Part shown: positions 5,288-38,388 of the stretch, piece after piece
Layout: each line of letters starts with the position of its first letter
Position numbering within the stretch: the stretch's first letter is position 1
DNA from: Psilocybe cubensis
Taxonomy: Eukaryota
Reading direction: 5' to 3'
Length of the DNA stretch: 64,000 nucleotides
Assembly: GCA_017499595.2 (NCBI GenBank)
Contig: CM038998.1
Location: 558,001 to 622,000, forward strand
Notes under the pieces: generated by a model
The model's input: the letters and a program-made list of their open reading frames with translations, nothing else
Databases searched by the model: none
Told to the model about the DNA's origin: nothing
Translations under genes and position numbers: made by a program

Positions 5288-7847
5288 TGTTCTCAGGTTT
5301 AAAGACACACAAATGCTTGATCTTTCTTAAGCTTTGGAGGAGTATTAGAGTATTCTTGTCATGAAAGCACAAAGTTCGTAAAGGTCAGTAACGATATGGG
5401 TAAAAGGTCTTGAAGAAAAGCGTTCAATCGTTCAAAAAGAGACGCGACTTTGACGTTGGCATTGTTTGTTTCTGAGGCGGATCGTGGGAAAATAATTTTT
5501 CAACTTATAAGGCTGGACATTTATTTTCTTCTTTCTCTTGTCATCTCCTTCGTCGTGCCTTGTGAAGGTCTCCGGCTTCCTCAATGAACACATTTTCTCT
5601 CGATATTGTGTGATCCCTCATTCAGAGAGGTGCATCGTCCATTTCTCAAATCAACCCCATGAACCTAGTCAAGGACCCAGTTCTCCCTTCGGGATACACC
5701 CTACACTTGGGGCCTGTTACGTTCATGGAAGATCAAGCGGTTCGATTCATCCTTGCTGCTTCTCCTTGTTTTTAGGATGGCGGAATAACAAGGATTCGGG
5801 CTCGTGACGTCTCTTCAGAGTTGAACGCCGTTGCTCTCGTCTTGTTGATGGGTTAACATGGTGTTCGTAGTTTTGGGACATACATCTCAATTCTCTATGT
5901 ATGTTTTTTAAACATTTTGTATTGCTTTGGTGCCCGTTAGTATTTGATATATCTCACCAATCAGTTTCTCGTTCAATTTTTTTCCTCTCGACGACTGCTC
6001 GACGATGTTCACATCCTTCGATATCTGTACCCTCAAACCTCGCGCGAAACAAATGTTACAAGTTGTTACAAAGATATCATTTCGGATAATTACACCGTCA
6101 ATCATGTCAAGCTGAGCCGAACATCATCCTCTAGATGCCATTTGGAAACCTCAAGTAAATCATACCAGCTATGCAAGGTATCTGCTTCGAGCTTCAATGA
6201 CACTTGCCGCTTCAAAGCATGGAGTAAAAAAGCATGTCCCGTGTTTCAATGGTTACTTGGATCGCAAAGCACACCTTTCATGTCTTGCGCGTTGTCTTCG
6301 TATGCGTTTCGAGATGTGAGCGAGTGTCTGAGGCCCAGTTCCGATCTGTAGCAGCTAACAGTAATTTGGTTTGAGAGGTTTGTTGGGCTAGGAGCATCCA
6401 AATGATTCGGACTACTGCTCATTGACGGTGGTACGTTCAAGGGATATCAGCCATTGAGTGGAGAAGTACCTCGCTAGTCAGTCAGAAGTCCGGTGCAAGC
6501 TCGAAGCGTCGACCAGACAAAGGGAGCGTTCATGCAATCTAGCCCCATCCTGAATATAGAATTCTACGATGCGCGCGCCTATTAACTTTCAGCAGGTATA
6601 CTTTGCAATTCCTGATATTGGTTGTTGTCAGACGACTACATATAGAACAGTCTGTGGCGCTAAGAAGTCCTGCCAACGAATCTTGCAGGTAGTAAGCAAT
6701 TGAAGGTAGTTCGACGGCGGTGAAACTTGTTAGTGGCATAAGGAAAGGTGTCGCTTCCGTTATTGGTATCATTATCGTGTCGTTAACTTTGAACCCAGAT
6801 TCGGCAGGGAACTGAATCAACTGATGCTCAGTCGCTCTTTCCACGACTTCCACCACCTCCCCGGCATACAGTATTGTTTGCTGTCGGTGGCTCATGGCAC
6901 ATTTCCAAGCTCAATCCTTTATTACACAAGGTTCTGAATACATTCCTTTTACATTCACCATATTCAACGTTGCAATGCTATAGGCCCCGCTGTCGCTGAT
7001 TCGAATAGATTTGAGCTCTGGTCTCTGTTGAATCTTGTCAAAATTCAAAAATGGTCTCATACACCCACGATCCCTTCGCGCAGCTGTCATATTGTGGGCG
7101 CGGCGCAACATTAGCGGTGAGCTCTTTTCCTGCTCTTACCAGCCACATGATCTAGCTCTTTACTCTGTGGCGTAGACGTGTTCCTCGCGTCATTGAAAAA
7201 TTGAAGAACCGCAAGGTTCCAGCAGCAGCGTTGGCAGATTTAGATCTCGCGCTGCTGACGCAGTCACCTTGTACATGGCTGTACAGTCGTCCTTTTTCAA
7301 CATCATTGTCGAGGGTCAGATACGATGACTCTCTTGTGATACAACAATAACCGAGTAAGCTCGGAGTAAGTAAGTCAATGAAAATCGATTACCATTGAAC
7401 GCTGAGATTGTGGCTAGAAGAATCAATCTCGGGTCAAAGGTGCCCCTGTGCGTTGATTGCACAATATGTCGCGTTCGCTGAAAATTGACCTGCTCTACAG
7501 GGATTGATAATGGGGTACAGGAAATATCAAGGACATGTATACATTTAATTGTTATCCATTGGGACCAGGACATACCCTCTGCATTCTCAAAAGCCTGTCG
7601 GTGGATTGAAACTAGAAAATATGTACTATTCGGCATCATCGAGTGTTTGCGAACTTTCCTTATCAGACAGTTATTTTACGCCTTTTTTCGGAACTTCGAA
7701 GCTTCCCGTCAGAAGTTCAAATGAATTGACTCATAAGAAGCAGAGATACAGGCACATGTTGGTTTTCCTACGGTCCGCCGAAATTTGGGATCCATCTCCT
7801 CTAGCTCAGCAGCCTCACCTACTGCATTCTCTAACGTGTCAACAACC

Positions 7848-10066
7848 ATGTCAGGTCATTCTTCACCTCCCGTTCTCTCACAGCCCGTGGGTATTCTGGG
7901 TGCAGGAGTAGCCGGTCTCATAAATGCCTATGTACTGCTCCAAGATGGGTTTACGAATATCACAGTCATCACTCGCGATCGGTCGGTCGGGGGAGTATGG
8001 TCTAGAGATAGAGTCTACCCAGGCCTGCATATTAACAAGTGAGTAGTGATTAAACGTATCTATCTCAAAGGTTTTGACAATTTCTCCCGGCAGCGTCCAT
8101 GGCGAATACAGGTTTTCACCTATGCCTATGCCTCCTCCCGAGGACTCTGAAGAGACCGGCGGTCACATCACAGGAATGGGCATGTGCAACTATATGGAAA
8201 CGTTCTATACCACATTCCTAAAGAACAAAGTGGATTTTGCATTCGAGACCGAAATCACGACCGTCCGGCGCATGCAGAAGGAGTCGTGGGAGGTGGAAGT
8301 TAAAGACCTTCAAACACATACTGTGAAGGTGCTGAGTTTTGCTCGAATTGTATTGGCAACAGGGGTGAGTGGTACGCTTTGATGTTTCCATCCTCTTTCT
8401 CTGAAGATGGTCAATTAGGGCTGCAGCAATCCGAAGATACCAGATGAATTGTCGCTGGAAAGAGCTAAAGAGGTGAAATTCAGCGGGATGATTCTGCACT
8501 CCTCTGAGTTCCGTATTCGCCTCGAGTCTATCCTTGAAAAGGTTAAGCCGAAGGAACAAACGGATGACACAATCTTAGTAGTCGGAGGGGGAAAATCGGC
8601 TATGGAGTACGTTAATGCCGTTTGCTATTCTGTTCCGCTCCATGAGTCGGCTAATAATACCACGATCAGTATGTGCGCTAAATTGACACTCGAGGGTCGG
8701 AGAGTTGCCAATGTTCTCACAACCCCGGATACATTCATCGCGTCGACTTTCCGTATTCCTGATTTCATCAGGAAAAGCAGGTTTTTGGGTCTTCTTTCTC
8801 CTCATATAACCCTCAACACACGCCTTGAGTGAGTTGATCATACTGAATCGGTTAACAAGCATTGTATCTTACATAAACTCAGGCGTTTTCTGCATACAAC
8901 AACTATAGGCAGCACAATCGCTCGATTTATTCTCAATAAATTAGAGCAAACATCCGTGAGCTGCTCGTGATCCCATTGGATATTCAAATCGACTGCTGAT
9001 TAGAATGCACCCTTGCAGCTCAATGCTTATAAGGTGTCGGATAACTCGCCGTTGCGACCTAATGCTGCAAGAAATTCAATTCTCTGGGGAATTCGAACTA
9101 ATGACGAAGGACTCGCCAATCCCAAGGCATACTACTCACTCGTTAATGAGGGTAAAATTAAGGTCATTGCTCCAGCACGAGCAATTGGATATGATGCGGA
9201 TGGAGCTTCCGTGAACCTGAGTACTGGCGAAAAGATACGCGCGAGCGTTGTAATTCTTGCCACTGGATGGAAAAGCTCGTGGGCTGATATATTTGACGGT
9301 AAGTATAGCGGTTTTCATTTGGTGTGATACAAACTTTACATTTTTTTTCTCAGAGACAACGGCGTCCGAGTTGGGTATTGGAAGACACCCTCCAACATAC
9401 GATCTTCAAGATGTCGAGTCCCTTTGGAAAGACTACAAGACACTCTGTGATCCTCCACCTAGACATGCTGGTCATGAGACGCACTATGTAACATCGATAT
9501 ACCGTGGTTTAATCCCAGGCAAGAACCTGAACAATCGCGATTTCGCTATAGCAGGGGCAATTGTGAGTGGACATCTCGGTTTATCCTCCATTCAAGCCTT
9601 TTCTTTATGACTGATATTTTGTTTCTGATGACCATAGTTCTCCTCAAATTTGGGCTACACCGGTGAAGTAGCCGCTCATTGGATATCGACATACTTCCAA
9701 GGCAGCCCTATGCGACTTCCTTCCTCGCCCGAAGCAGCAGTTGCAGAAGCCGAGCTTCGCTCAGCATGGATGAAATTCAGATACCCAAACATGTTATCTT
9801 GGGTGAATGAGAGCTACAGCACTACGCTGGACTTCTGGACGTAGGTCCCCCATCCTACACCCAGCCTACATTACGTCTTTGTTCACTTACTTTTTATTGA
9901 CTCTACTAGGTGGCCACAAGCAGCTGACGAGCTACTAGCTGACATGTACGTACCAAATATGCGAAGTGGTGGTAATTGGTTTACATGGCCGTTCCGTGTC
10001 ATTGACCTTAAGGAATTGGCGACTTTGGGAGAGGAAAGAAGGGCTGTACGAGAACGGATGATGTAG
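7848..10066 (+). CDS. Flavin-dependent monooxygenase (FMO-like, FAD/NAD(P)-binding), multi-exon
   Basis: GILGAGVAG FAD motif, GGVW, VLATG, FSGMILHSSEF (FxGxxxHS FMO fingerprint), VVGGGKSA NADP motif, second ILATG; canonical introns; stop TAG at 10064-10066. Confidence 0.9.
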
Positions 10067-17192: not shown

Positions 17193-19167
17193 GTGTAGTG
17201 GTTATAGAGATTAAATGCTGAAATCTATATGAAAGGGATAAAGGAACGACAAAGAAAAACAAAAGGAGTGAATAGGATAAGGTTAAAAAAGAAAGGAAAT
17301 TTTATTTTGAAAGGAGTGTGGGTGAGGAGTATGATGGTCAACAGAATGCGTTACCGACCATAAGCCTTGTTGGTGATCGACTGAGTACAAGAGTTTTTGG
17401 GTATAATAAAAGTTGGGGTTGGTCAAGGGAAAGACAGGGCGCCCTTATGACGAAGCCAGCGCTGCCTGGCATAATAAAGACTAAGAAAATATTCTTAAGC
17501 CTGTCTTGACTTGTTGATCTCGGGGATGAACACCTACCGATTGGGGCCACTCCGCTAGGTGCCTGTGCTAAATTCTAACCTGGACTTCAAAACATTTCAG
17601 TCATTGCTTACTCTTGAATAACATGCAGTGTAAGGACCGCAAATTCAATTCGTCAGCAACGAGGAGGAAAGTAGTAGAGATATACGTGAGCATTTACTTC
17701 ACGGGGGATAGAGGTTGAGGTTCATTCTCGGTCGGTCAAGTCGGAAGTCATTCATGTCCATTGCAACTTGCAACGTGCCCGGTTGCACATGGAGCGGAGC
17801 GTGAGAACAATTGTCTAAAAATAAATCAATCAGGGACACACCTGATATCCTTCAAAATATCATATAAAATTGCCTTTGAAAAAGTAAAAAATAAGTAATT
17901 CAAGAGTCAGAGTTGAAGCTTGAAGCAGTACTTACAAGGATGTACTACAAATTAAACAAAGACTCAGGATACTAAGACAATTTAATCAACTATTGTGCCG
18001 GATCAAATTGCGCCTCTCAACGGCGCCGCTGTTTGCCGGAATTAAAGTCACCGAATCTGGCCCACTTTGAACGATTATTCTCAATCTTCAACTCAACTTG
18101 AACTCATTACTCAACTTGCACCTACGTTTTCGACCGCGTTTAGCTTCGACGGCTCAATATTAATGTTTTATTGATACCAGCAACTCCTTTGACGAATTTA
18201 ACCTCGCCTTCTCACCTCCTCTTGTTAGCATAATCCACTAGTACTTCAAGCTCGTGTAGTACTTCTTCAGCATCTGATTTCTGGCGTTCAAAAACGAAAA
18301 AGGACCTCTGTGAAGCTGGATATTTGGCCCTCCTTGTACACGCGTGCTTTAAAAGCAGACAACTACTCATGTGCGTAAAGAAGGGGTCTTCGTTGAAAGT
18401 CGTGTTGCCAGACCACTGTGCCTTTAATCATCTCCCTGGATACAATTTAGAGTTCCAGTGCGCAAACCGCTCGTTCACGCTCGTTTGCATTACAAAGTAC
18501 CACTCTATTGGGGATTCAGACCTGTACACTGCTTGTTACAGTACAAAAATGCTCTTCTTCTCGACCCTGCAGTACGGAAGCGGGCATTATCCCTGGCGAC
18601 AGGATCATGCCTCGCTCGCATCCATAATACTGGGTTCAGTCAAGACTTGCTCTAGATCGGACGACGTTGACTCCATTTTTTCTTTCTATCTTCCTGCGAG
18701 GACCTTTTGCAACGTTGTGTTTTGTTATACAACTTTCCGCTTTTCCCCAGAGTAAGCTGGACGATCATTGCTTCTGGTTTAAAGCACTTGTGGGGAATTT
18801 ATGCCCTTTCACAACTCCAGAACCCATGCGTCGGTCCGTTCCTTGAAATTGGCTTGGCCAACCTTTTAGCCGTGTCTCCAACGTTGGTAAACACTTCCTC
18901 AATTTTAAATTGATATTTGTCGTCATCTCTACCTACATTTCATCGTGCCAAGCACAGGGGTTCGAATATCTATAAAACTTGCGAACCAGAACGATTCACG
19001 TTCGTTTTCATCCTTTTCTTTTGACCGGCCTGGCATCGTTGTTTTTTTGACCTGGTGTCTTTTTTGAGTCGACCTCACTTCGTTTCGTTTCGTTTCGTTT
19101 CTTCTTCAGTTAATTCGTTCTTTTTTCTAAACATTTTTCTTTGGGATACTTTTGAATCACTTCTCCA

Positions 19168-20974
19168 ATGGCACGCTTCCCTACTTCCTTGGTCTCTTTC
19201 CTCATTCTCGCTTGTGCATTCCAAGCCAATGCTGGTACGCTCCTATCTATATTTAACATCTACTTTACACTTAAAGCAATATTTAGCTCCTCTTCAGGGT
19301 CGTGGTGCAGGCAAAGCAGGCTCTGTTAACGCATGTACCTCAGCACAAACTTCGCTCGTTACCCAAATCAAGTCAGCCAATGATGCTCTCATCAAAACTG
19401 CCAACTCTTCCCCTAAGTAGGTCTGATTGCTACTGCGCAGATACCACCTTTACAATTTCTTGACAACAGGGATGTTGCTCTGATCGAATCCCTGACCGCC
19501 ATCCAGAAAGGATTGAAGGAGTCTTTGAGTGGAGTTAATAACGTCGCCGATTCTCTCTCCAAGGGCAGCACTCCTTCTCTCACCAGCTTCAGTTTGATTG
19601 CTAGTGGACTGGACAATGCCAGGACTGCCCTGTCCGGCACCAAAGCGTAAGCCAGTCATTGACTCATCGCATCGCATTCTTATATTTTTCTGATTTGCAT
19701 TTACACAGTGTTGATGCAAGTAAAGCCACACAGCTCCTCAAATCTGTCCAGGATAAGATCAACAAGGCCCTCGCTGCTGGAACGAAAGTTGTCGAGGCAT
19801 GCGGGACATCCAGTGTTACCACCACCCTCGCCATCGAGTCCAAATCCGCATCGGAGACCGCGACCGCCGTTGAAAGCGCCAGTACCACCGAGAGTGTTTC
19901 CGCGTCCACGATGAGTACCGATCACGCTTCCGCCACAACCACAGCTGCCGCCGAGTCTGCCTCTGTCACGGAGTCGGCGTCCGCTTCGACTACTTCGGAT
20001 GCCGCTGCTACAACGACTGCTATTGAGTCTGTCACGGAGTCGGCGTCCGCTTCGACTACTTCGGATGCCGCTGCTACAACGACTGCTGTTATGTCTGAGG
20101 TGGTGACGTCTTCCTCGAGTGCTGCGGAGACCTCCTCAACTGCCGCCGCTGCAACAGACACATGCCCTCCTCAAGTGGTAAGCTCTTTGTCTTGTTATGC
20201 CTCCTGCGATCAGTCGTTTAAATGCCCTTTTTCCTCAGACCGTCACACAAGCTGGTGCTGCTGTAACCAAGACCATTACCAAAGCTGCTATCCAGACGAA
20301 GACCGTGATTAAAGCTGGCGCCGCCGGCAAAGTGAGTGATTCACCTTTCGTTCTTGCATCTGCATACTTATTCACCATCAACAGCAGAAGACTGTTACTG
20401 TTACCGCCGCCGCTGTTGTAAGCACAATTTCTCGTCTTGGTTGTATGATTCTTACAATTCGCCTCAGACCGTCACCGTCACTGCCGATGCCACTGCCACA
20501 GAATCTGCGAGTGTATCTGAGGCTGCTTCCACTACGGAGACATCTACATCTGCTGCTGCGACCGAAACCAAGAAGAAGGTCCTCCTCGAGAAGCCCAAAG
20601 TCGCCGAGAAAGCCAAGGGCCCCAAACGCGTAGAAGACAAGGGCCCCAAACGTGCGGACGACAAGAAGAAGGGCAGGAAGTCGTCGACCTCCGAGGCAGC
20701 TACCAGCACGGTCGAGACTGCTACCGCCACCGCTTCTGAGACCGCCGCATCAGAGACTGCCACCGCCAGCGAATCATCGACAGTCAGCGCTTCCGAGACT
20801 TCAAGCGTCGCTGAGACCGCTGTAAGCACCTCCGCTGCTGCCACGTCGACTACCGCCGCTTCGCAGGAAACCGGTCGACCCGACCATCCTGGAACCAACG
20901 ACGACCTCCCCACCGTCGGCAAACGCTTCTTTGACTACATTGTCAAGCACCCTGCGCGCAGTGCCACGAACTAG
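19168..20974 (+). CDS. Secreted Ser/Thr/Ala-rich (mucin- or cell-wall-like) protein with an N-terminal helical 2-Cys domain
   Basis: Signal peptide MARFPTSLVSFLILACAFQANA; multiple short introns; long S/T/A/E tracts; TATAAAA near 18971. Confidence 0.75.
19962..20087 (+). repeat. Coding tandem repeat, 66-nt period, 2 copies (SVTESASASTTSDAAATTTA)
   Basis: Identical 60-nt blocks start at 19962 and 20028. Confidence 0.9.
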
Positions 20975-22825: not shown

Positions 22826-23544
22826 CTATGTCACATCGTCGTGCCATGGGATGCCATGAGCCACGCGGAATTCGGTCCACTCAGACCATTTCTCTTCTGC
22901 TATTTCGTATGCCGGCTCCCAATCCACGCACGTATGTGTTGCCCCAAATCTCTCTGCAGTGAAATTTCGCTTCGTAAAGTCGCCAGGTTCAAGCGTCGCA
23001 TCCGCAGAACAAAGCGTATACTGCCGAAGGTAATTGAAGCAGTGCAAAATATGGTGCTGTCGTGGTAGGGTAAAGTTGTTCCATCCTTTTTCTATCACAT
23101 TTCGAATAGCCCTCAGGCAATGAAGTTCGTGAAACATGGCGACTGCGAACATCCTTTTCTCCTTTCCTAGTCGAATATGGCCGTCTCCTACGGACGCCGT
23201 CCACAACCACTCTTGCTCCGACTCGGGTGCAACGAGGTCGAAATGCACGCTCTCCTGTACGACCATCTTTACAAGTTTTTCTTCGATTGGAAGGCGCTTT
23301 GGATGGTCACCTCCGATAAATGCTGCAAAGGGTTAGTGAAGACGGTGGATGGTGAAAAGGGAGGCTTACAATACGAATCCAGAGGCCTTATTACATGGCT
23401 CCTTCTGGCGTGAGCCTTTACAGCGACAAGATTCTTGACGCTTTTTGCGAATTCAACCAATGACCACGTCAAATACAGCGAAGATGCAGCCAAGAGTGTA
23501 ATGCCCAAGAGTAGCGCTCGATGTCGTTTACCACTGTGTAGCAT
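22826..23544 (-). CDS. DUF3328 / UstYa-family oxidase #1 (2 exons; intron 23369-23323)
   Basis: N-terminal TM anchor; SFIGGDHP; two intact HXXHC motifs (MFHELHCL, HHILHCFNYLRQ); LCSADATLEP and HTCVDW typical of the UstYa family. Confidence 0.92.
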
Positions 23545-24879: not shown

Positions 24880-26569
24880 CGGGGAGCGGATTCGGGAGCA
24901 AGAGCATTATCAACACGTCAAAGAGCACAGTAGTATCAGGCACATACAATATTTCTACATAACGATTTTACAAATACACACATTAATACAAAAAAATTGT
25001 GTATAATATTATTATCACCCTGGTGGATACGGTCGGGAATTTTTTGGGACAGCGGCTGCGCAAGTGAATGGAGATTAGATGTACTTCACATTGGTCAAGG
25101 TGCGAAATGCTTAGATGACGAGTGTTCTAGAATTGTTTGAGAGGATCGGTTTTGGCCCAAGAAAGCCACAGAATGAAGTGGTGATGGGATGGTTGTGACG
25201 TCGGGCGGGAGAAAGGTGAGAGGTGTCCGGATTTGTGTACCATCCTCACTCCATGCCCTGCCATTTACAACCCGTAATATGATCAGAAGGGGTGCGATGC
25301 CCTGGTGAAAGTAAGTCAGTGATGAGGAAGGGTTGATAGCAGCAACACTGGACGTACGCTCATCTTCGACCATAGTTGGCCAAATAGAATACCCGTTCCA
25401 TATTCCAGGGAAAAGGGTATGAGATACATGATTCCCAGCAGACTGTAGGGAGCGGCGGACTCGATAAGGATGGCCGCTGCACCCCCGTAGATTTGCCCGT
25501 TCTCTTTCCCGAGTGTTTTTGAGAAACGCCTAGACAGGCGGAATAAGCGAACACAGATGAAGACAGTCACCACGATGTTGAGGCATATAGTAATGGAATA
25601 GTATGCCACCGCCAGCCTGACACTATCCTTGCCGAAGAAGTCGCCATTAGGCTTCCCTGCTAGGACAAGTTGCTGGATCGCTAATGCTTCAGACAACGTT
25701 TATGAGCACACGGTTGCAAGCTAGGCGAAGGAAACACTCACCAAATCCGACCATGTATGCCAACGCAGGAAGCAAAATAACCACAAAGCTCCTTCCATAA
25801 ACGAGAAAGAGGCGATATATCTGCGAAAACAATGGATATCGATTATCCCCTGGTGTGAAAATGAAGTCCCACCAGAAGTGCATCGCCCATGAACACAGAG
25901 CCGACGACCGATACTGACCCCAGGGTCTCGTATCCGACAGAGACCTCTGTCTTGATATACTGAGCAACTCCTCCAGGTCTTTCCCGATATGTGATCCACA
26001 TCTCTTCTCCCCAAACGGCATTGCAGGCGACGTCAATCGTTGTCAGCAGAACCATGATTGTGCTATATACCGCGCGGAACCGTTTGCTATGCATGGAACT
26101 CTCATTCCCTCTGCGGAACAGCGATTCCAGAATCATGAAGTACACGCTTAACTCAAACCCTGTAAGGAAGTCTAGGTTGAGTATCAACTTTCGAGTAAAA
26201 GTGTGACCCACCGTACATGATCCCTCCTATGTAGCTTCCTATGTAGTAGGAATGCTCGAAAAGTGTAGTTCCTGTGGACATGGCATGCAGCGCGAGTGCG
26301 AGACCAGCTCGTTGAAGTGTGGGGTATTAAAGTGAGCTTTGGGGACAAGGGGGACGAAACAATGGCATGTGTCAATATTATGTGAAGACCTGTGTTAATA
26401 AACAAGTCATCAATAACTTAGACTCAATAAGCCTGCCACCAAACCATTTATGCCGTTCTAACCTGCGGCAGGATGTCTTGGATCTGAAAACATAAGTTTG
26501 AGACTGTGGCTATATAGTACTCTGTGTATGATGTGAGTAGATTAATGCTTAATTGGCTTAGTTGCTTCT
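24880..26569. repeat. Segmental duplication copy A (~1.69 kb) containing a 7-TM gene
   Basis: Near-identical direct copy of 30113..31799. Confidence 0.95.
25095..26281 (-). CDS. Agaricomycete 7-TM (GPCR-like) membrane protein, copy A (5 exons)
   Basis: Spliced MSTGTTLFEHSYYIGSYIGGIMYG-FELSVYF...MGDALL-IYRL...IESAAPYSL...LIILRVVNGRAWS; about seven hydrophobic segments. Confidence 0.8.
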
Positions 26570-26615: not shown

Positions 26616-28278
26616 CTACATAGACGAGCCTGAAACAAACTCAAGAATGCCGAGCATACCTTTTTTGTCCTCGGCAGGCTTGACGGTTCGCCCAACAATA
26701 TCTCTGAGAAGGGATTTACTGGCAAGGTGGTGAGCAAAATGGTTACCCCAGTTGCGGATAGATGAGTTCGTCTCCGTCAGCAGGCGCATCGCATCCTTAT
26801 TATCCACGAGTACCTGGATTGCCTGTGGAATTATACCCCCTCTGCCAGTCAGGAGTGAGCGTGCAGTAAGCAAGCGGGCATCATCAGCTGCTGGTTCCCC
26901 ATCTTCACCTTTCAATTTCAGCCGCCATGTCATTGACGCGTACGAAGTAGTCTCTTTCTCAGAAACAAGCCCTGCAAATCTGGCTAGTTTTGCTTGACCT
27001 TCATCAACAAGAGTACGGAGTCGTATGCGATCAAGTATTTCAGGGTCCTGCAATAATCGTAAAGAATAAGTAACGGTCAAAAGAAAGCAGCTATAGTCAT
27101 ACGCACCGCAGTAACGGCCCACTGCTCGAGTTCGCCCGTACGTCCCGTAACATCGCTTAACTGCCAAAGATGCTCGTCTCTCTCAGACGCCAACGTCGCC
27201 TCGACTTTCTGCCTGGCTTCGCGCTCCTCGGTCATCGCCTTCTGTAAGTTCGCCACCTTTTCACGCTCCTCAGTCATCGCTTCACGCTCCTCGGTCATCG
27301 CCTTCTGTAAGTTCGCCAACGTCGCCTCGACTTTCTGCCTGGCTTCGCGCTCCTCGGTCATCGCCTTCTGTAAGTTCGCCACCTTTTCACGCTCCTCAGT
27401 CATCGCTTCACGCTCCTCGGTCATCGCCTTCTGTAAGTTCGCCAACGTCGCCTCGACTTTCTGCCTGGCTTCGTGCTCCTCAGTCATCGCTTCACGCTCC
27501 TCGGTCATCGCCTTCTGTAAGTTCGCCACCGTTTCAGTCAAGAGTGCCTGTGAATTAAACCGTCAGAGGCAAGTCAAGAGGAAAGACGATTGAATGGGAT
27601 CAATACCAAAGGATCAGAAGGAGTCGACGAGCCACCAACGGAGGCTGCGCCACTCTTCTGTGATTTGCCTTTCTTCCGCTGCGGTTTCTTTGGCTTTGTA
27701 TCTGGGATGGATAAACAATTCGAAAAATCATTAATAACTCACAACCAGAGTGGAATGAAGGAGATACCTTCTTCCTGAAGTAACTCGGCCAAGGCAAGTT
27801 GATGTTGCAACTGAGTGACTTTTTCTTGCAGCATGGTATTCTCCTCGGTCAGTTGATTATTGGTTGCGACTTTTTGCTCGTAGTTCTTAAGCAAGCGAAA
27901 TATGTGGTGAGCGGAAGTGACGTTGACCATGCAAAGTCCCGTCTCGCCTGCAAAAATGGTGCTGAGGGAAGCATTCGTTGGAGCTGGCATTCCGACAGAA
28001 CTTGAAGTCGTGACTGGTTAATAAGTCAGCTTCTATGTGACGGTCACAATTTTGATCCCACCTGGTGCCGGCGAAGGTCGAGCTGGGTAGAAAGGTGTAA
28101 CACTGATGCAAGTCTTGAGAATAACGTCTTTTTCTACGCCAACTTTCTGTCCCATCTCGGAGGCATACATATCCAAAAGATCAGCCCCAGTCTTCGTGCC
28201 TTCGACATCAAGCACCACGCTATCAATTAAAGTATGCATTTGAATGGTTAGACTGCGTGAATTCGATGATTCCGACAT
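26616..28278 (-). CDS. Multi-exon hypothetical protein with an internally amplified coiled-coil repeat (ANLQKAMTEERE)
   Basis: Exons from ORFs at 28033, 27739, 27077 and 26616 plus a short Lys-rich exon, joined by GT-AG introns; near-perfect DNA repeats. Confidence 0.6.
27188..27530 (-). repeat. Coding tandem repeat, 126-nt (42-aa) period with nested 21-nt modules
   Basis: caacgtcgcctcgactttctgcc recurs at 27191, 27317 and 27443. Confidence 0.92.
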
Positions 28279-30112: not shown

Positions 30113-31799
30113 CGGGGAGCGGATTCGGGAGCAAGAGCATTATCAACACGTCAAAGAGCACAGTAGTATCAGGCACATACAATATTTCTACATAACGATT
30201 TTACAAATATACACATTAATACAAAAAAATTGTGTATAATATTATTATCACCCTGGTGGATACGGTCGGGAATTTTTTGGGACAGCGGCTGCGCAAGTGA
30301 ATGGAGATTAGATGTACTTTACATTGGTCAAGGTGCGAAATGCTTAGATGACGAGTGTTCTAGAGAGGATCGGTTTTGGCCCAAGAAAGCCACAGAATGA
30401 AGTGGTGATGGGATGGTTGTGACGTCGGGCGGGAGAAAGGTGAGAGGTGTCCGGATTTGTGTACCATCCTCACTCCATGCCCTGCCATTTACAACCCGTA
30501 ATATGATCAGAAGGGGTGCGATGCCCTGGTGAAAGTAAGTCAGTGATGAGGAAGGGTTGATAGCAGCAACACTGGACGTACGCTCATCTTCGACCATAGT
30601 TGGCCAAATAGAATACCCGTTCCATATTCCAGGGAAAAGGGTATGAGATACATGATTCCCAGAAGACTGTAGGGAGCGGCGGACTCGATAAGGATGGCCG
30701 CTGCACCCCCGTAGATTTGCCCGTTCTCTTTCCCGAGTGTTTTTGAGAAACGCCTAGACAGGCGGAATAAGCGAACACAGATGAAGACAGTCACCACGAT
30801 GTTGAGGCATATAGTAATGGAATAGTATGCCACCGCCAGCCTGACACTATCCTTGCCGAAGAAGTCGCCATTAGGCTTCCCTGCTAGGACAAGTTGCTGG
30901 ATCGCTAATGCTTCAGACAACGTTTATGAGCACACGGTTGCAAGCTAGGCGAAGGAAACACTCACCAAATCCGACCATGTATGCCAACGCAGGAAGCAAA
31001 ATAACCACAAAGCTCCTTCCATAAACGAGAAAGAGGCGATATATCTGCGAAAACAATGGATATCGATTATCCCCTGGTGTGAAAATGAAGTCCCACCAGA
31101 AGTGCATCGCCCATGAACACAGAGCCGACGACCGATACTGACCCCAGGGTCTCGTATCCGACAGAGACCTCTGTCTTGATATACTGAGCAACTCCTCCAG
31201 GTCTTTCCCGATACGTGATCCACATCTCTTCTCCCCAAACGGCATTACAGGCGACGTCAATCGTTGTCAGCAGAACCATGATTGTGCTATATACCGCGCA
31301 GAACCGTTTACTATGCATGGAACTCTCATTCCCTCTGCGGAACAGCGATTCCAGAATCATGAAGTACACGCTTAACTCAAACCCTGTAAGGAAGTCTGGG
31401 TTGAGTATCAACTTTCGAGTAAAAGTGTGACCCACCGTACATGATCCCTCCTATGTAGCTTCCTATGTAGTAGGAATGCTCGAAAAGTGCTGTTCCTGTG
31501 GACATGGCATGCAGCGCGAGTGCGAGACCAGCTCGTTGAAGTGTGGGGTATTAAAGTGAGCTTTGGGGACAAGGGGGACGAAACAATGGCATGTGTCAAT
31601 ATTATGTGAAGACCTGTGTTAATAAACAAGTCATCAATAACTTAGACTCAATAAGCCTGCCACCAAACCATTTATGCCGTTCTAACCTGCGGCAGGAATG
31701 TCTTGGATCATTACTGAAAACATAGGTTTGAGACTGTGGCTATATAGTACTCTGTGTATGATGTGAGTAGATTAAAGCTTAATTGGCTTAGTTGCTTCT
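30113..31799. repeat. Segmental duplication copy B (~1.69 kb)
   Basis: Near-identical to 24880..26569, differing by a few SNPs and small indels. Confidence 0.95.
30328..31505 (-). CDS. Agaricomycete 7-TM (GPCR-like) membrane protein, copy B
   Basis: Same exon structure as copy A; differs by T6A, R->C (RFCAVY) and a 9-nt in-frame indel (QTI) near the C-terminus. Confidence 0.8.
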
Positions 31800-34545: not shown

Positions 34546-35556
34546 ATGTCAGAGAGGTCGGACGAGCTCGAGTCGATGACTCTGCTGGAAATCCATGAAG
34601 ATGAATATAATGGCTATCGAGGCGAGTAACCTACGTTCAGCTTAACGAATTTATTTAATTGGTTCTCAGGCTCCAAAACAGCCCAGAAGTGGCACACTAC
34701 CCCGACCACAGTCACCACAGCAATCACTATCGGGTTGGCCATTTTTTTCATTTTTGACATCATGGCATTTGTCTATATTATCATGATTCTCAAAGAAACT
34801 AGTCGGATAGGCGCAGTGGACAGTTTGCCGTTCAAGAATCCATATGTCGGACTGGACCAACTTTACAACCTCCACAAAATAAAACCTTCACAGTACGATC
34901 GGATTGTCAATGAACCTCGTCTAGCTACCCAGATTAGCCAAGATGAACCGCAGAAAATATTTCCCGTCGATCTCCACCGATGGCTCAGTGACTTTGGACT
35001 TCTTTCGCCGCCTGATCGCAACTTCAAAGTTACCAGCACTGTATGATCTTCTCTTTGTATCGTCCATGATCATTGCCTCATGTATTGCTCATAGATCCAT
35101 ACGATACTTCAATTTCACGTCCTAGATTACGGTATGGAACAGTGTTCGCTTGCAGTTCGCCTTCCGAACCGCGAGGACATTCTGCCCCACCCCTTTTCCT
35201 TGCCTGTGACGGGGGACACTGTGAGGCTTGACATATGCGAGCTCGCCGCCAGCCGTCCCTTGAAAGAAAGCACACTAAGCTGGTCGACACGCCCAAACTG
35301 TATCCGGAGCCTGGGAAGTCTGGACGCCAAAATCGGAGGAGAAGTCAGCATGGAACCGTTTTTCTGTAGATCAGGTTCGTTCATCGCATATCAGGTCTCT
35401 TGTGCAAAAGGATTTCCCGGCTGTGAGGTCGATGTCTGGACAAATCAAAATGCGACTTGGGGTGAGCTCTATTGTTTGTCCCCGTACTGCTTTCGTTCCC
35501 CTGACTGTATTACGACATTCAAAGGCGTTTATTTGAATCAATATCAGACTACTTAG
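34546..35556 (+). CDS. Type II membrane protein with a But2 C-terminal-like domain (function unknown)
   Basis: N-terminal TM (AITIGLAIFFIFDIMAFVYII); NPYVGLDQLY; HTILQFHVLDYGMEQCSL motif; Cys-rich C-terminal region. Confidence 0.65.
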
Positions 35557-36615
35557 ATGAAGTTATCTACATCTGCATCGTCAGGCACTGTTGAGTACCT
35601 GAACACTCTGGGCGTTCTGTTATGTCATTCCCAATCCATTTCTATTTTGCCATGCAGTTTGCCATTACGAAAGTCGACAAAACAGAACGTCATCACAAGA
35701 CCCCGCCGCCCTAATTCTTACCGGCGCGAGATGATTCCATAGATCGATCGAGCTTCACCTATCTTTTTAGGGCCAAACAGCGAATTTTTCAAGTACAGCC
35801 CTGATAATACAAGGCCATCGATGTCGCCGATAGGATCTTCTGAGCATATGAAGAACATGGCTGATCTGCAAATGTGTCCATTGTATGGGCGTTGTGTGGC
35901 TTTCCGCAGTTTCTTTTTAGTGAAGGAACATGAAACACGCAGCTCTTCTCGGGAGCAAGTAGGTATCGGACATTGAGCGCTTATCTTTTCCAAGTGAACT
36001 CACAGCAAGGATGCATGTCCCAAGGATCCAATACGGTCCACTATAGCCGGATCAAGAGTAATTATCCTTTAATAAAATGTGATCTTTTCTTCCTTGATCT
36101 GTTGAAAGGGAGACGAAGAGGGAAAAAATAAACGCGGTCATCTAAACGACTGCAATTGCAGAACCCGGACTTTAAGTAGAGAGTCCATGCAACCTGGTGA
36201 CCTCCATATGCCGATCAGCCATTGACTAGCACTTTCGTCACATAAAGAGTCGGCATTTGCTTGGAGGCATTCCTAGACTTCTAATCCCTTAGAATTATTG
36301 ATCCGTGGTATGCCCAGACCATTTAGTAAACTTCCCCGCGGCTATTATAGGACACGCGCCCGTTGCGCATAAGCCAAAGGTCTCAGGTGAGCATGTAAAA
36401 TTGCTGAATAAACGGATGAAATTGAATCTTCTGCACTAAGTGGTGTCGATTCTAAATATAAACTGGTCGTATTGTACACTAGCCCCTTGGCTTACTATCA
36501 CGCTGGAATTATGAAGTATTAAGGATGAACATCAGCCGGAAGTGTGCTGGGAGGGCAGTTTTTCCTTGACAGAAAAAGTCAGCTGGGTCATATACAACCA
36601 TGATGATATCTCACT

Positions 36616-36890
36616 TCATTGAGTATCTTGCTGTGTAGAGCGTCGCAACCACGCAGTATCGGCACGAGCGACTTCAACCTCACGCAGCCAAGCGGTATCG
36701 GCACGAATAGCTTCAACTTCTCGGAGCCACGCAGTATCGGCTCGACCAACTTCAGTTTCAACTGGTAGCGGGTTAGAGACAGAAACGGCGAGTATAAACG
36801 AATAATCATACCTGATTCGATTTGTGCGACTGGTAAGGCCGTAACAGATACAATAAGAGCAACAACGATGTAGAGTTTGGCGCTGAACAT
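36616..36890 (-). CDS. Secreted repeat precursor peptide 1 (74 aa): MFSAKLYIVVALIVSVTALPVAQIESV-ETEVGRADTAWLR-EVEAIRADTAWLR-EVEVARADTAWLR-RSTQQDTQ
   Basis: Exon 1 36890-36812; 50-nt GTATGA..CTAAC..CAG intron 36811-36762; exon 2 36761-36616; signal peptide; three 13-aa repeats with identical core and synonymous-only differences in the core codons. Confidence 0.9.
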
Positions 36891-36950
36891 TTCTGAGATG
36901 CTAACCGTTGCAGTAGGAGTTATAGAGCTGTGCAACATTTGAAACCCTGC

Positions 36951-36957
36951 TTTTATA
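36951..36957 (-). promoter_or_regulatory. TATA box of precursor 1
   Basis: TATAAAA on the minus strand about 60 nt upstream of the ATG. Confidence 0.55.
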
Positions 36958-38388
36958 ACTTTCCGTCTGCTCGTTTTCAGATCCTGCATCTTACTTAGTT
37001 GACTCAGGGCAGCTTCCGAGCATTTTGGTATATCGGGCCCCCTTTTCCGCTGCTAGCGTCTGGGGCAATTGACATATTAGATCAGGTATCGATATATGTC
37101 AATAATGCGGGTCCGTCCTTTTCGCTGACTCTTCTGTCTTATGTCGCAAATTGGAAGGGAAGATAATAATTAGCATGTTCCCTCCTAGGCAAATGTAAAA
37201 AAAAACTAAAATAAAATAAAATCCCATGATACTGTATTCAAAAAGCATGAAACAATCGGAGTAAATATGTACTTCTAGTTATGGTATAAAATTGATTTCC
37301 AATGACGACGATTCTGCTTGTCGTGAAGATATATTAATTTCTAAAGTTTACCATCCCTATTTGATTGCAAACCCCTTTTGAGGATGATCCCCTCAACATC
37401 GGTGGCTGTGGGACCATCATACCGCGTAGCAGGCGAGACGGGTGACACTGCACGCGAAGCCCTTGGCAAAGTACGTACATTCGGATGCCCCGAGGCGACC
37501 ACCGATCGTTGAATGCATGACTAAGTTGACTTATGTACCTGGACAACTTTCACATTTCTCTGTGCCTTAAGGTACTTCCGATTTCAGTCGAACCTGAGAT
37601 ATGGTCCGTATGTAATTATGAAGGCCAACTAGACGAAAGTTATTTTTGGTCATTACTATTTTTAGGCGCCCATGAAAGCGCCAAGCGCCATGGTTGATTT
37701 GACCATCGCGCTTAGTTGGTTACACACGTCAAAGTCAAAGTCGCATCAAAAGACGCAAAACAGCTAAGCCTAAAGAACTGTGTATAACTGACCTCCTAAG
37801 AGTATGCAAAGTTTATTGTCCTGCTCGTAATTATGCTTGAACACTTTCATAGCGGGATTGATGCCCCTTAATGCCGTTAGCAGACGAATATCGTCGTGGG
37901 TGAAACAGAAAAATTAAACTACATTGAGTGTTTTATTAGTACCAATATGTATCCATATTTTAAGCATCATCTACCCGCTATATTCGTTTCTATTCAGGTA
38001 AATCGCCCTGGCATGATAATGATACATTATTTCCATGGGGAGTATCTACGAAAGCAAAAGAATCAAAATTTATAAAATTTACTCTGCACATGGCATGGCA
38101 AATAAGAATACCCAAAATGCTACCAAGTTAATCACCACTAATCCCGCGTGCCTCTACCTCAGCTATTCCGGATTATCATTCCAGGCGAACTTGGGTTTGC
38201 TACCGAGATCTTGAGTGAGTCGATGCATCTGCTCAGATCCTTGTACATCAAACGATCCAAGTTTCATAGACACAGGAGTTGTTTCACTAAACACATACTT
38301 TCCGTTTTTGTTAATATGAATATATCAGGCGGCCGTATTTACTACCCTTGATATTGTCGAAGAACTTCCTACGTTCATTTTCTCCACA

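Follow-up and report, generated by a model that had tools for sequence, protein, structure and literature searches.

An intron-containing multi-core precursor gene, its sister and a UstYa/DUF3328 gene pair in Psilocybe cubensis: a credible candidate for an agaric modified-peptide pathway

Introduction

Can a small repeat gene of Psilocybe cubensis, which an open-reading-frame track reads wrongly, supply the peptide on which neighbouring oxidases act? In dikaritin pathways, as set out in the available part of PMC9233826, the repeated precursor passes into the ER, Kex2 cleaves it and UstYa/UstYb introduce cross-links. The accessible sections of PMC12435403 describe DUF3328 proteins as dimers anchored in the membrane, whose HxxHC motifs contain a binuclear copper site on the lumenal side and which act on peptides by hydroxylation, halogenation or cyclisation; CctR needs the first His of both motifs for its activity. 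Dikaritins are placed under ascomycetes only in the corresponding sections of two reviews (PMC12048977, PMC9233826), and a KEP survey suggested, in the portion available, that repeat peptides might scarcely be cyclised in Basidiomycota (PMC7329392). Here we analysed a 64,000-nt stretch of the P. cubensis genome (the window), for which an original prediction had proposed a spliced precursor with three identical cores.

Results

Gene structure of precursor 1

The gene in question, precursor 1, consists of two exons separated by a short intron (Table 1) and encodes a product of 74 residues followed by a stop. Each repeat unit of exon 2 is built from an acidic spacer, Arg, ADTAWL and Arg. The best 9-residue Kyte-Doolittle mean at the N-terminus is 3.4, and the hydrophobic stretch is conserved in homologues. 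Both the intron at 36811-36762 and the 74-aa product of the original prediction were borne out by canonical splice signals and by a public model with an identical intron. The ORF track had been said to read through this intron and to shift frame, and indeed the unspliced reading from ATG 36890 gives an unrelated 101-aa frame. The description of the gene as hidden is right for the ORF track but not for the annotation: the GenBank P. cubensis model JR316_0000165, a hypothetical protein, is 100% identical, has the same splice and carries 16 extra N-terminal residues. Precursor 1 is already annotated in GenBank, without function.

Table 1. Coordinates of the precursor genes, the oxidase genes and neighbouring features in the window
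Feature	Position	Strand	Details
UstYa1 (UstYa/DUF3328 gene 1)	22826..23544	-	PF11807 E 8.1e-19; exons from tblastn with P0032
Second membrane protein, same family as the 46854..48084 gene	30328..31505 (approximate)	-	self-blastn, exon alignment
GNAT-like acetyltransferase, 217 aa	32945..33994	+	introns from RNA-like contigs; frame open
But2-domain membrane-anchored protein, 281 aa	34546..35556	+	PF09792 E 3.5e-7; frame open; tail to tail with precursor 1
Precursor 1 exon 2	36616..36761	-	146 nt to TGA at 36616; three 13-residue units, short tail, stop
Precursor 1 cores ADTAWL	36741-36724, 36702-36685, 36663-36646	-	in exon 2
Precursor 1 intron	36762..36811	-	50 nt, phase 1, donor GTATGA, branch site CTAAC, acceptor CAG
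Precursor 1 exon 1	36812..36890	-	79 nt from ATG 36890, 26 codons + 1 nt; hydrophobic signal-peptide-like stretch and short pro-region
TATA-like box (putative promoter of precursor 1)	36951..36957	-	67 nt before ATG 36890; 19 nt before upstream ATG 36938 of the public model
Precursor 2	38475..38749	+	exon 1 38475-38532, inferred phase-1 intron 38533-38600, exon 2 38601-38749; 68 aa
Multi-pass membrane protein, basidiomycete family	46854..48084 (approximate)	-	ESM Atlas 0.95 to Basidiomycota clusters; candidate receptor
UstYa2 (UstYa/DUF3328 gene 2, JR316_0000167)	48720..49424	+	PF11807 E 7.5e-17

The 74-aa form is favoured over the public model because the TATA-like box stands only 19 nt from ATG 36938 and because the start of two homologues aligns with ATG 36890; the upstream ATG is for these reasons the less likely start. 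Two other frames were rejected as genes, the unspliced 101-aa frame and a 133-aa ORF (36588-36989), as past exon 1 no homologue follows either of them.

The GNAT-like and But2 genes next to precursor 1 have introns of 48-63 nt, one of which shares the donor GTATGA, and these are skipped by RNA-like contigs. Since introns of similar size are skipped in both adjoining genes, the precursor 1 intron is of the local type. The same two RNA-like runs, which cover the GNAT-like and But2 genes, gave no contig over either precursor; such contigs drop short transcripts, and this absence therefore says nothing on expression. Among the 51 candidates of a search with exon 2, three proteins were found: JR316_0000165, CVT25_009642 of Psilocybe cyanescens and one Logan protein. 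Pfam gave nothing above a cut-off for the two precursors and four homologues, and the best ESM Atlas score of precursor 1 was 0.83, at the level of leads only.

A sister gene in head-to-head orientation

Precursor 2 lies head to head with precursor 1 at a distance of 1.6 kb and carries four cores, ANTIFL, ADTAFL, MDTAFL and VDTVFL, each followed by Arg. Its orthologue is CVT25_009662 (P0004) of Psilocybe cyanescens, in which both exons were matched. Neither the protein search nor either profile search yielded a P. cubensis model of precursor 2; the locus tags from JR316_0000165 to 0167 allow for a single gene in between, where the window offers two candidates. A six-frame scan of the window gave eight matches, seven of them in precursors 1 and 2, and revealed no third precursor.

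Cores, spacers and the homologue family

Tandem Repeats Finder reported an array at 36644-36754 with a period of 39, 2.8 copies and 77% matches. Words of 6 residues present in three exact copies within 60 residues were counted at 49 window positions, in which the precursor 1 locus and other tandem arrays are pooled, and in none of 10 triplet shuffles. The three cores of precursor 1 are identical, with the codons that the original prediction had quoted. Its further claim, that cores vary synonymously and spacers by amino acid, agrees with the counts: in the three pairwise comparisons, which are not independent of each other, the eight codons of the Arg-core-Arg segment gave 13 identical, 11 synonymous and 0 replacement pairs (24 in all), and the five spacer codons gave 5, 3 and 7, respectively (15 in all). 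This suggests a purifying pattern in the core codons. In two other DNA runs the sole spacer change is a replacement and the sole core change is silent, and neither precursor has a frame-breaking change. The spacers of precursor 1 follow E-V/T-E-x-x-R, its predicted cut sites are single Arg with one RR, and its tail resembles a decayed fourth unit. Precursor 2 has no RR.

Among 1.84 billion representatives, a profile search found 19 matches. Seven of these form the family, namely two proteins of Psilocybe cyanescens, one each of Panaeolus cyanescens and Panaeolus papilionaceus, and three further records; 11 were dropped after inspection as unrelated repeats and one, P0018 (2334 aa), was left out with its sequence uninspected. 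The second profile search returned eight matches, seven already known and P0030 (E 0.73), which was dropped, and brought no credible addition; it missed CVT25_009662, itself part of the query alignment. In a metagenome scan, one of 64 pattern matches passed; it has just one copy, lacks both repeats and a signal peptide, and was rejected.

Conservation of the core in homologues, on which the original prediction had staked its reading, was found: the Psilocybe cyanescens orthologue of precursor 1 has four exact cores set in different spacers, and further relatives retain x-D-(T/A)-x-(W/F)-L. The pattern x-(D/N)-(T/A/N)-x-(W/F)-L, which itself fixed positions 2, 3, 5 and 6 and missed one divergent unit, gave 43 cores in nine sequences (five near-identical ENA proteins being counted as one). 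Arg follows the core in 30 cases, Lys in 7 and His in 1, and in 5 a stop stands at this place; the core is preceded by Arg or Lys in 34/43. Position 5 is occupied by Phe (25) or Trp (18), and Tyr is found in 0/43 cores. KR or RR stands at 10 of the 43 sites, nine of these in the Panaeolus and window/Logan proteins.

Because the core Leu is the C-terminus of the protein in five of the nine sequences, the Arg after the core is probably the cut site and the core a hexapeptide. The released piece is thus more likely ADTAWL than the ADTAWLR of the original prediction, as several relatives stop after Leu and basic residues flank the conserved unit on both sides. Pro or Leu precedes the core in the ENA form, for which reason the product may be longer and include some of the spacer. 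Two homologues have an insert of about 20 residues beginning with Gly at the position of the precursor 1 intron; judged from the protein, this would be a retained intron placed as in precursor 1.

Two UstYa/DUF3328 genes flank the precursors

The precursor pair is flanked by UstYa1 and UstYa2, of which UstYa1 is 13 kb and several genes off. UstYa1 has both HxxHC motifs intact and an N-terminal membrane helix, and is predicted to be an active copper enzyme. In UstYa2 two of the four ligand histidines are replaced (HQLKC, LVRHC).

A search with the exons of both genes gave 109 matches among 212 candidates, 67 nearer to UstYa1 and 42 nearer to UstYa2, and in a tree of 45 named or window rows the two formed fully supported groups, each spanning Agaricales and Polyporales. 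In the UstYa1 clade the first His of both motifs is present in 67/67, and the second in 67/67 and 66/67, respectively. The second His of motif 1 is found in 0/42 of the UstYa2 clade, with Lys or Arg in 40, and the first His of motif 2 likewise in 0/42, mostly with a hydrophobic residue instead. UstYa2, judged by these residues, would not share the mode in which CctR, ApnU and AprY bind two coppers. With its 42 relatives it forms a DUF3328 clade with fixed loss of two ligands, whose contig is nearly always shared with an intact paralogue. Both types lie on contigs of equal size in 14 of the 15 named assemblies that show both.

A complex prediction of UstYa1, UstYa2 and exon 2 of the precursor, run without alignments, scored 0.00. 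The predicted fold of the UstYa1 exon (pLDDT 70) had no match in the PDB at E 0.001.

Linkage of precursors and oxidases in other genomes

The contig of the precursor carries a UstYa orthologue in 3/3 other genomes, in Panaeolus cyanescens that of UstYa2 only. In Psilocybe cyanescens both UstYa orthologues and both precursors are located on one contig of 181,794 bp, with oxidase and precursor locus tags 24-58 apart. In Panaeolus cyanescens the precursor and one UstYa2 share a 96,895-bp contig, and a second UstYa2 lies with UstYa1 on a contig of 17,924 bp; the type-181 KEP PPR06249 of this species adjoins UstYa2. In Panaeolus papilionaceus the precursor KAF9055666 is 3 and 8 accessions away from UstYa1 (KAF9055669) and UstYa2 (KAF9055674). 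If accessions follow position, the gene order there differs from that of the window and the genes stay together.

In Galerina marginata a repeat precursor catalogued by Umemura, KDR85986, known here from its catalogue entry alone, is two accessions from the UstYa2 orthologue KDR85984. In four other species no catalogued precursor with a neighbouring accession prefix was found. For comparison, the available portion of the KEP survey reports a DUF3328 gene within 15 genes for only 103 of 1680 basidiomycete KEPs (6.1%) (PMC7329392). Inherited gene order explains part of the linkage, because Psilocybe, Panaeolus and Galerina are relatives.

Other genes and elements of the window

A Pfam scan of 52 frames of the window, in which short exons could be missed, found no tyrosinase, peptidase or transporter. 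The GNAT-like gene matched PF00583 in no more than a single 35-aa exon, at E 0.0063 and short of the curated cut-off. RNA-like contigs skip three introns of the But2 gene, the first of which (34622-34669) fits best as a GC-AG intron.

No Pfam match was obtained for the membrane protein at 46854..48084. A 1.7-kb duplication (24880-26569 / 30113-31799), 98.4% identical, holds a gene of the same family, to which the gene at 46.9-48.1 kb is a more distant paralogue. The proteins of this family, encoded at 25, 30 and 47 kb, may be seven-helix receptor-like. Between the duplicated membrane genes there is a coiled-coil frame at 27077-27562 (-) made of 63/126-bp tandem repeats, with 98% matches at period 126 and no family above the cut-off. 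The protein encoded at 19025-20974 (+), 2 kb from UstYa1, is probably secreted; it has a long repeat tail rich in Ser, Thr and Ala, a basic island in which KR and KK sites occur, and no Pfam match. It may correspond to the Panaeolus cyanescens KEP PPR06249.

Precursor 2 and UstYa2 are parted by transposon insertions. One is a copia-type LTR retrotransposon at 40068-45620 (+), with 373-bp LTRs that are 99.7% identical, a 5-bp target duplication and a gag-pol split into two frames of 756 and 785 aa. It sits within inverted repeats 39374-39585/46175-45965 (99.5%) and 39668-39761/45964-45871, which are probably a nested DNA element. A short poly(A)-tailed insertion with a flanking direct repeat of about 12 bp lies at 39119-39263; it is probably polymorphic, because in two other DNA runs the contigs are interrupted at 39117 and resume with sequence like that beyond the insertion.

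At the right edge of the cluster there is a sirohaem synthase (MET1-like) gene at 49813-51921 (-). Further out we noted a multi-exon flavin-dependent monooxygenase-like gene at 7737-9610 (+) with weak per-exon Pfam matches, a fungal FunK1-type kinase frame at 55209-56366 (+) and, at 61371-63836 (-), a protein kinase whose long N-terminal part is of low complexity.

Comparison with known systems

The dikaritin clusters of Ascomycota (ustiloxin, phomopsin, asperipin-2a and victorin, and the epichloecyclins) share with this locus a signal peptide, here a putative one judged by hydrophobicity, repeated cores, acidic spacers and a nearby DUF3328/UstYa gene, as far as the available parts of PMC7329392 and PMC9233826 describe them. 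By the same sources, the ustiloxin precursor also has a 13-residue repeat, and two DUF3328/UstYa genes accompany it, as here. The differences are that the host is a basidiomycete, that the Psilocybe proteins have single Arg where KR would stand, that neither tyrosinase nor transporter was seen in the window, and that one oxidase constantly is without two copper ligands. The cores of ustiloxin, phomopsin and asperipin use Tyr, and tyrosinase belongs to the ustiloxin and phomopsin clusters, in contrast to the Tyr-free cores of this family. Two HxxHC motifs, by which dikaritin oxidases are judged, are present in UstYa1 but not in UstYa2 and its clade. UstYa1 also resembles the copper-dependent DUF3328 enzymes CctR, ApnU and AprY in its N-terminal membrane helix and HxxHC...HxxHC arrangement.

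With the KEPs of Agaricomycetes (Le Marquer 2019, Umemura 2020, Vogt 2022) precursor 1 has in common that it is a small, putatively secreted protein with short repeats ending at basic residues, and its Panaeolus relatives carry true KR sites at some positions. The KEP rule of Umemura 2020, in the portion available, asks for at least three tandem repeats of 8-100 residues, and precursor 1 has three units of 13; it also asks that these be separated by KR, KK, RK or RR, whereas precursor 1 has one dibasic site. The Psilocybe proteins as a group do not satisfy this dibasic rule. The proteins PPQ90003, PPQ90022 and PPR06266 are absent from Table S2 of the KEP survey in the form available (PMC7329392), though their genomes were covered; the table gives accessions without sequences. 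The KEP peptides of Vogt et al. are linear, and DUF3328 has 0 occurrences in the main text available (PMC9769878). Precursor 1 is not a KEP by the published rule; by analogy it would work like a dikaritin precursor, with dikaritin membership awaiting the product.

Clusters of Termitomyces and Fomitopsis called 'fungal-RiPP-like' by antiSMASH were likewise called on a UstYa/DUF3328 match, and the accessible text on them identifies no precursor, vs. two precursors here (PMC11455885; bioRxiv 10.64898/2026.09.14.751415). The Termitomyces authors state there that a precursor is required to establish a RiPP.

We found no literature on precursor 1, its core or the cluster among the texts searched; figures, bioRxiv supplements and subscription papers could hold the family. 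The core motifs are absent from the available text supplements of PMC7329392, PMC6339444 and PMC9769878, save for one chance match inside an enzyme, and the part of PMC10282164 covered has no relevant passage.

Discussion

Three observations carry our reading of the locus: the gene structure in the DNA, the conservation of the core and the linkage with two UstYa/DUF3328 genes. Precursor 1 is a real, conserved multi-core precursor gene, and together with its sister and the oxidase pair it makes up a credible and apparently undescribed agaric peptide pathway. At a probability of roughly 60%, precursors 1 and 2 are the multi-core precursors from which a dikaritin-like peptide arises, one that is ribosomally made and then modified, lacks tyrosine and has single-arginine sites. 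Against this stand the 13 kb that separate UstYa1, the lack of tyrosinase, peptidase and transporter among the 52 frames scanned, and the cores devoid of Tyr. Since the UstYa pair, with its 109 matches, is far more widespread than the precursor family, it may also act on something else.

In the proposed pathway, the signal peptide would carry the precursor chain into the ER, where UstYa1, membrane-anchored and lumenal with an intact binuclear copper site, would oxidise or cross-link residues of the core x-D-T-x-(W/F)-L. The acidic spacers may serve as the recognition sequence, and UstYa2, without two of the ligands, could be a non-catalytic dimer partner or a substrate reader. A Kex2-type protease would then cut after the single arginines on both sides of the core, as the cuts after single Arg reported in the available text for Coprinopsis KEPs expressed in yeast would allow (PMC9769878), and a Kex1-type carboxypeptidase would trim the last Arg to give hexapeptides such as ADTAWL and ADTAFL. 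The product would be secreted, with defence or competition as the most plausible role. Trp and Phe interchange at position 5 and Tyr is absent, which excludes ustiloxin's tyrosine ether as the chemistry. Hydroxylation of a C-H bond, or a linkage to the aromatic residue, would fit better, by analogy with victorin, a Tyr-free precedent reported in the available part of PMC9233826 to be cyclised via the side chain of Phe.

The alternative that holds up best, which we consider unlikely, is that the precursors release unmodified linear hexapeptides as alpha-factor-like signals, which are read by the neighbouring multi-pass membrane proteins, with the oxidases as bystanders. The precursors indeed have three genes of one membrane-protein family within 12 kb; according to the text available (PMC9769878), the KEP peptides so far detected in agaricomycetes are linear and several have Trp at the end, and the ESM Atlas gave a yeast alpha-factor cluster at 0.80, as a lead only. 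Alpha-factor-like pheromone precursors, however, have X-A/X-P runs for Ste13 after the Kex2 site, and no regular dipeptide runs of this kind follow the predicted cut sites here; MF_alpha domains had no Pfam match at E up to 5 in the precursors and four homologues. Moreover, DUF3328 neighbours are almost never beside pheromone-type KEPs in the available part of the survey (PMC7329392), and two of the three membrane genes go back to a recent duplication.

It is less probable still that the precursors, as real secreted repeat proteins, were recruited to an old UstYa block or merely lie within it, with a linear defence peptide or the whole protein as the active form and an older substrate for the oxidase pair. 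The age of both UstYa clades, seen in their span of Agaricales and Polyporales, would agree with this, as would the restriction of recognisable precursors to two genera and three further records. Yet small spliced precursors are easily missed, as the model of precursor 2 and CVT25_009662 were in our searches, and the catalogued precursor of Galerina stands beside an orthologue of UstYa2. That the locus is silent or decaying in the P. cubensis lineage and the repeat a remnant is very improbable: the transposon insertions between precursor 2 and UstYa2 and the tail of precursor 1 speak for it, but the frames, splice signals and cores are intact in both precursors, silent changes dominate in the cores, and two other DNA runs break neither frame.

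If the modified-peptide reading is followed further, the old pair of an intact and a ligand-depleted DUF3328 protein across Agaricomycetes might be central to a class of modified peptides that is spread across mushrooms, whose first substrates would be the tyrosine-free hexapeptides x-D-T-x-(W/F)-L described here, and whose enzyme-pseudoenzyme heterodimer would carry out new chemistry. We put this forward tentatively, as an idea more doubtful than not. Precursors of such a class would have been missed because they are tiny, have an intron after the signal peptide and are cut at single arginines.

Basidiomycete genomes hold many UstYa-type clusters, for which the portions of the literature found name no precursor or product. 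The locus supplies exact candidate cores and masses, which makes the question of modified peptides testable in a cultivable mushroom, and exposes a blind spot of surveys based on dibasic sites. It also brings a candidate peptide metabolite to light in a fungus that is consumed by people. Should the idea of a mushroom-wide class prove true, the peptides would represent a new product class of psilocybin mushrooms.
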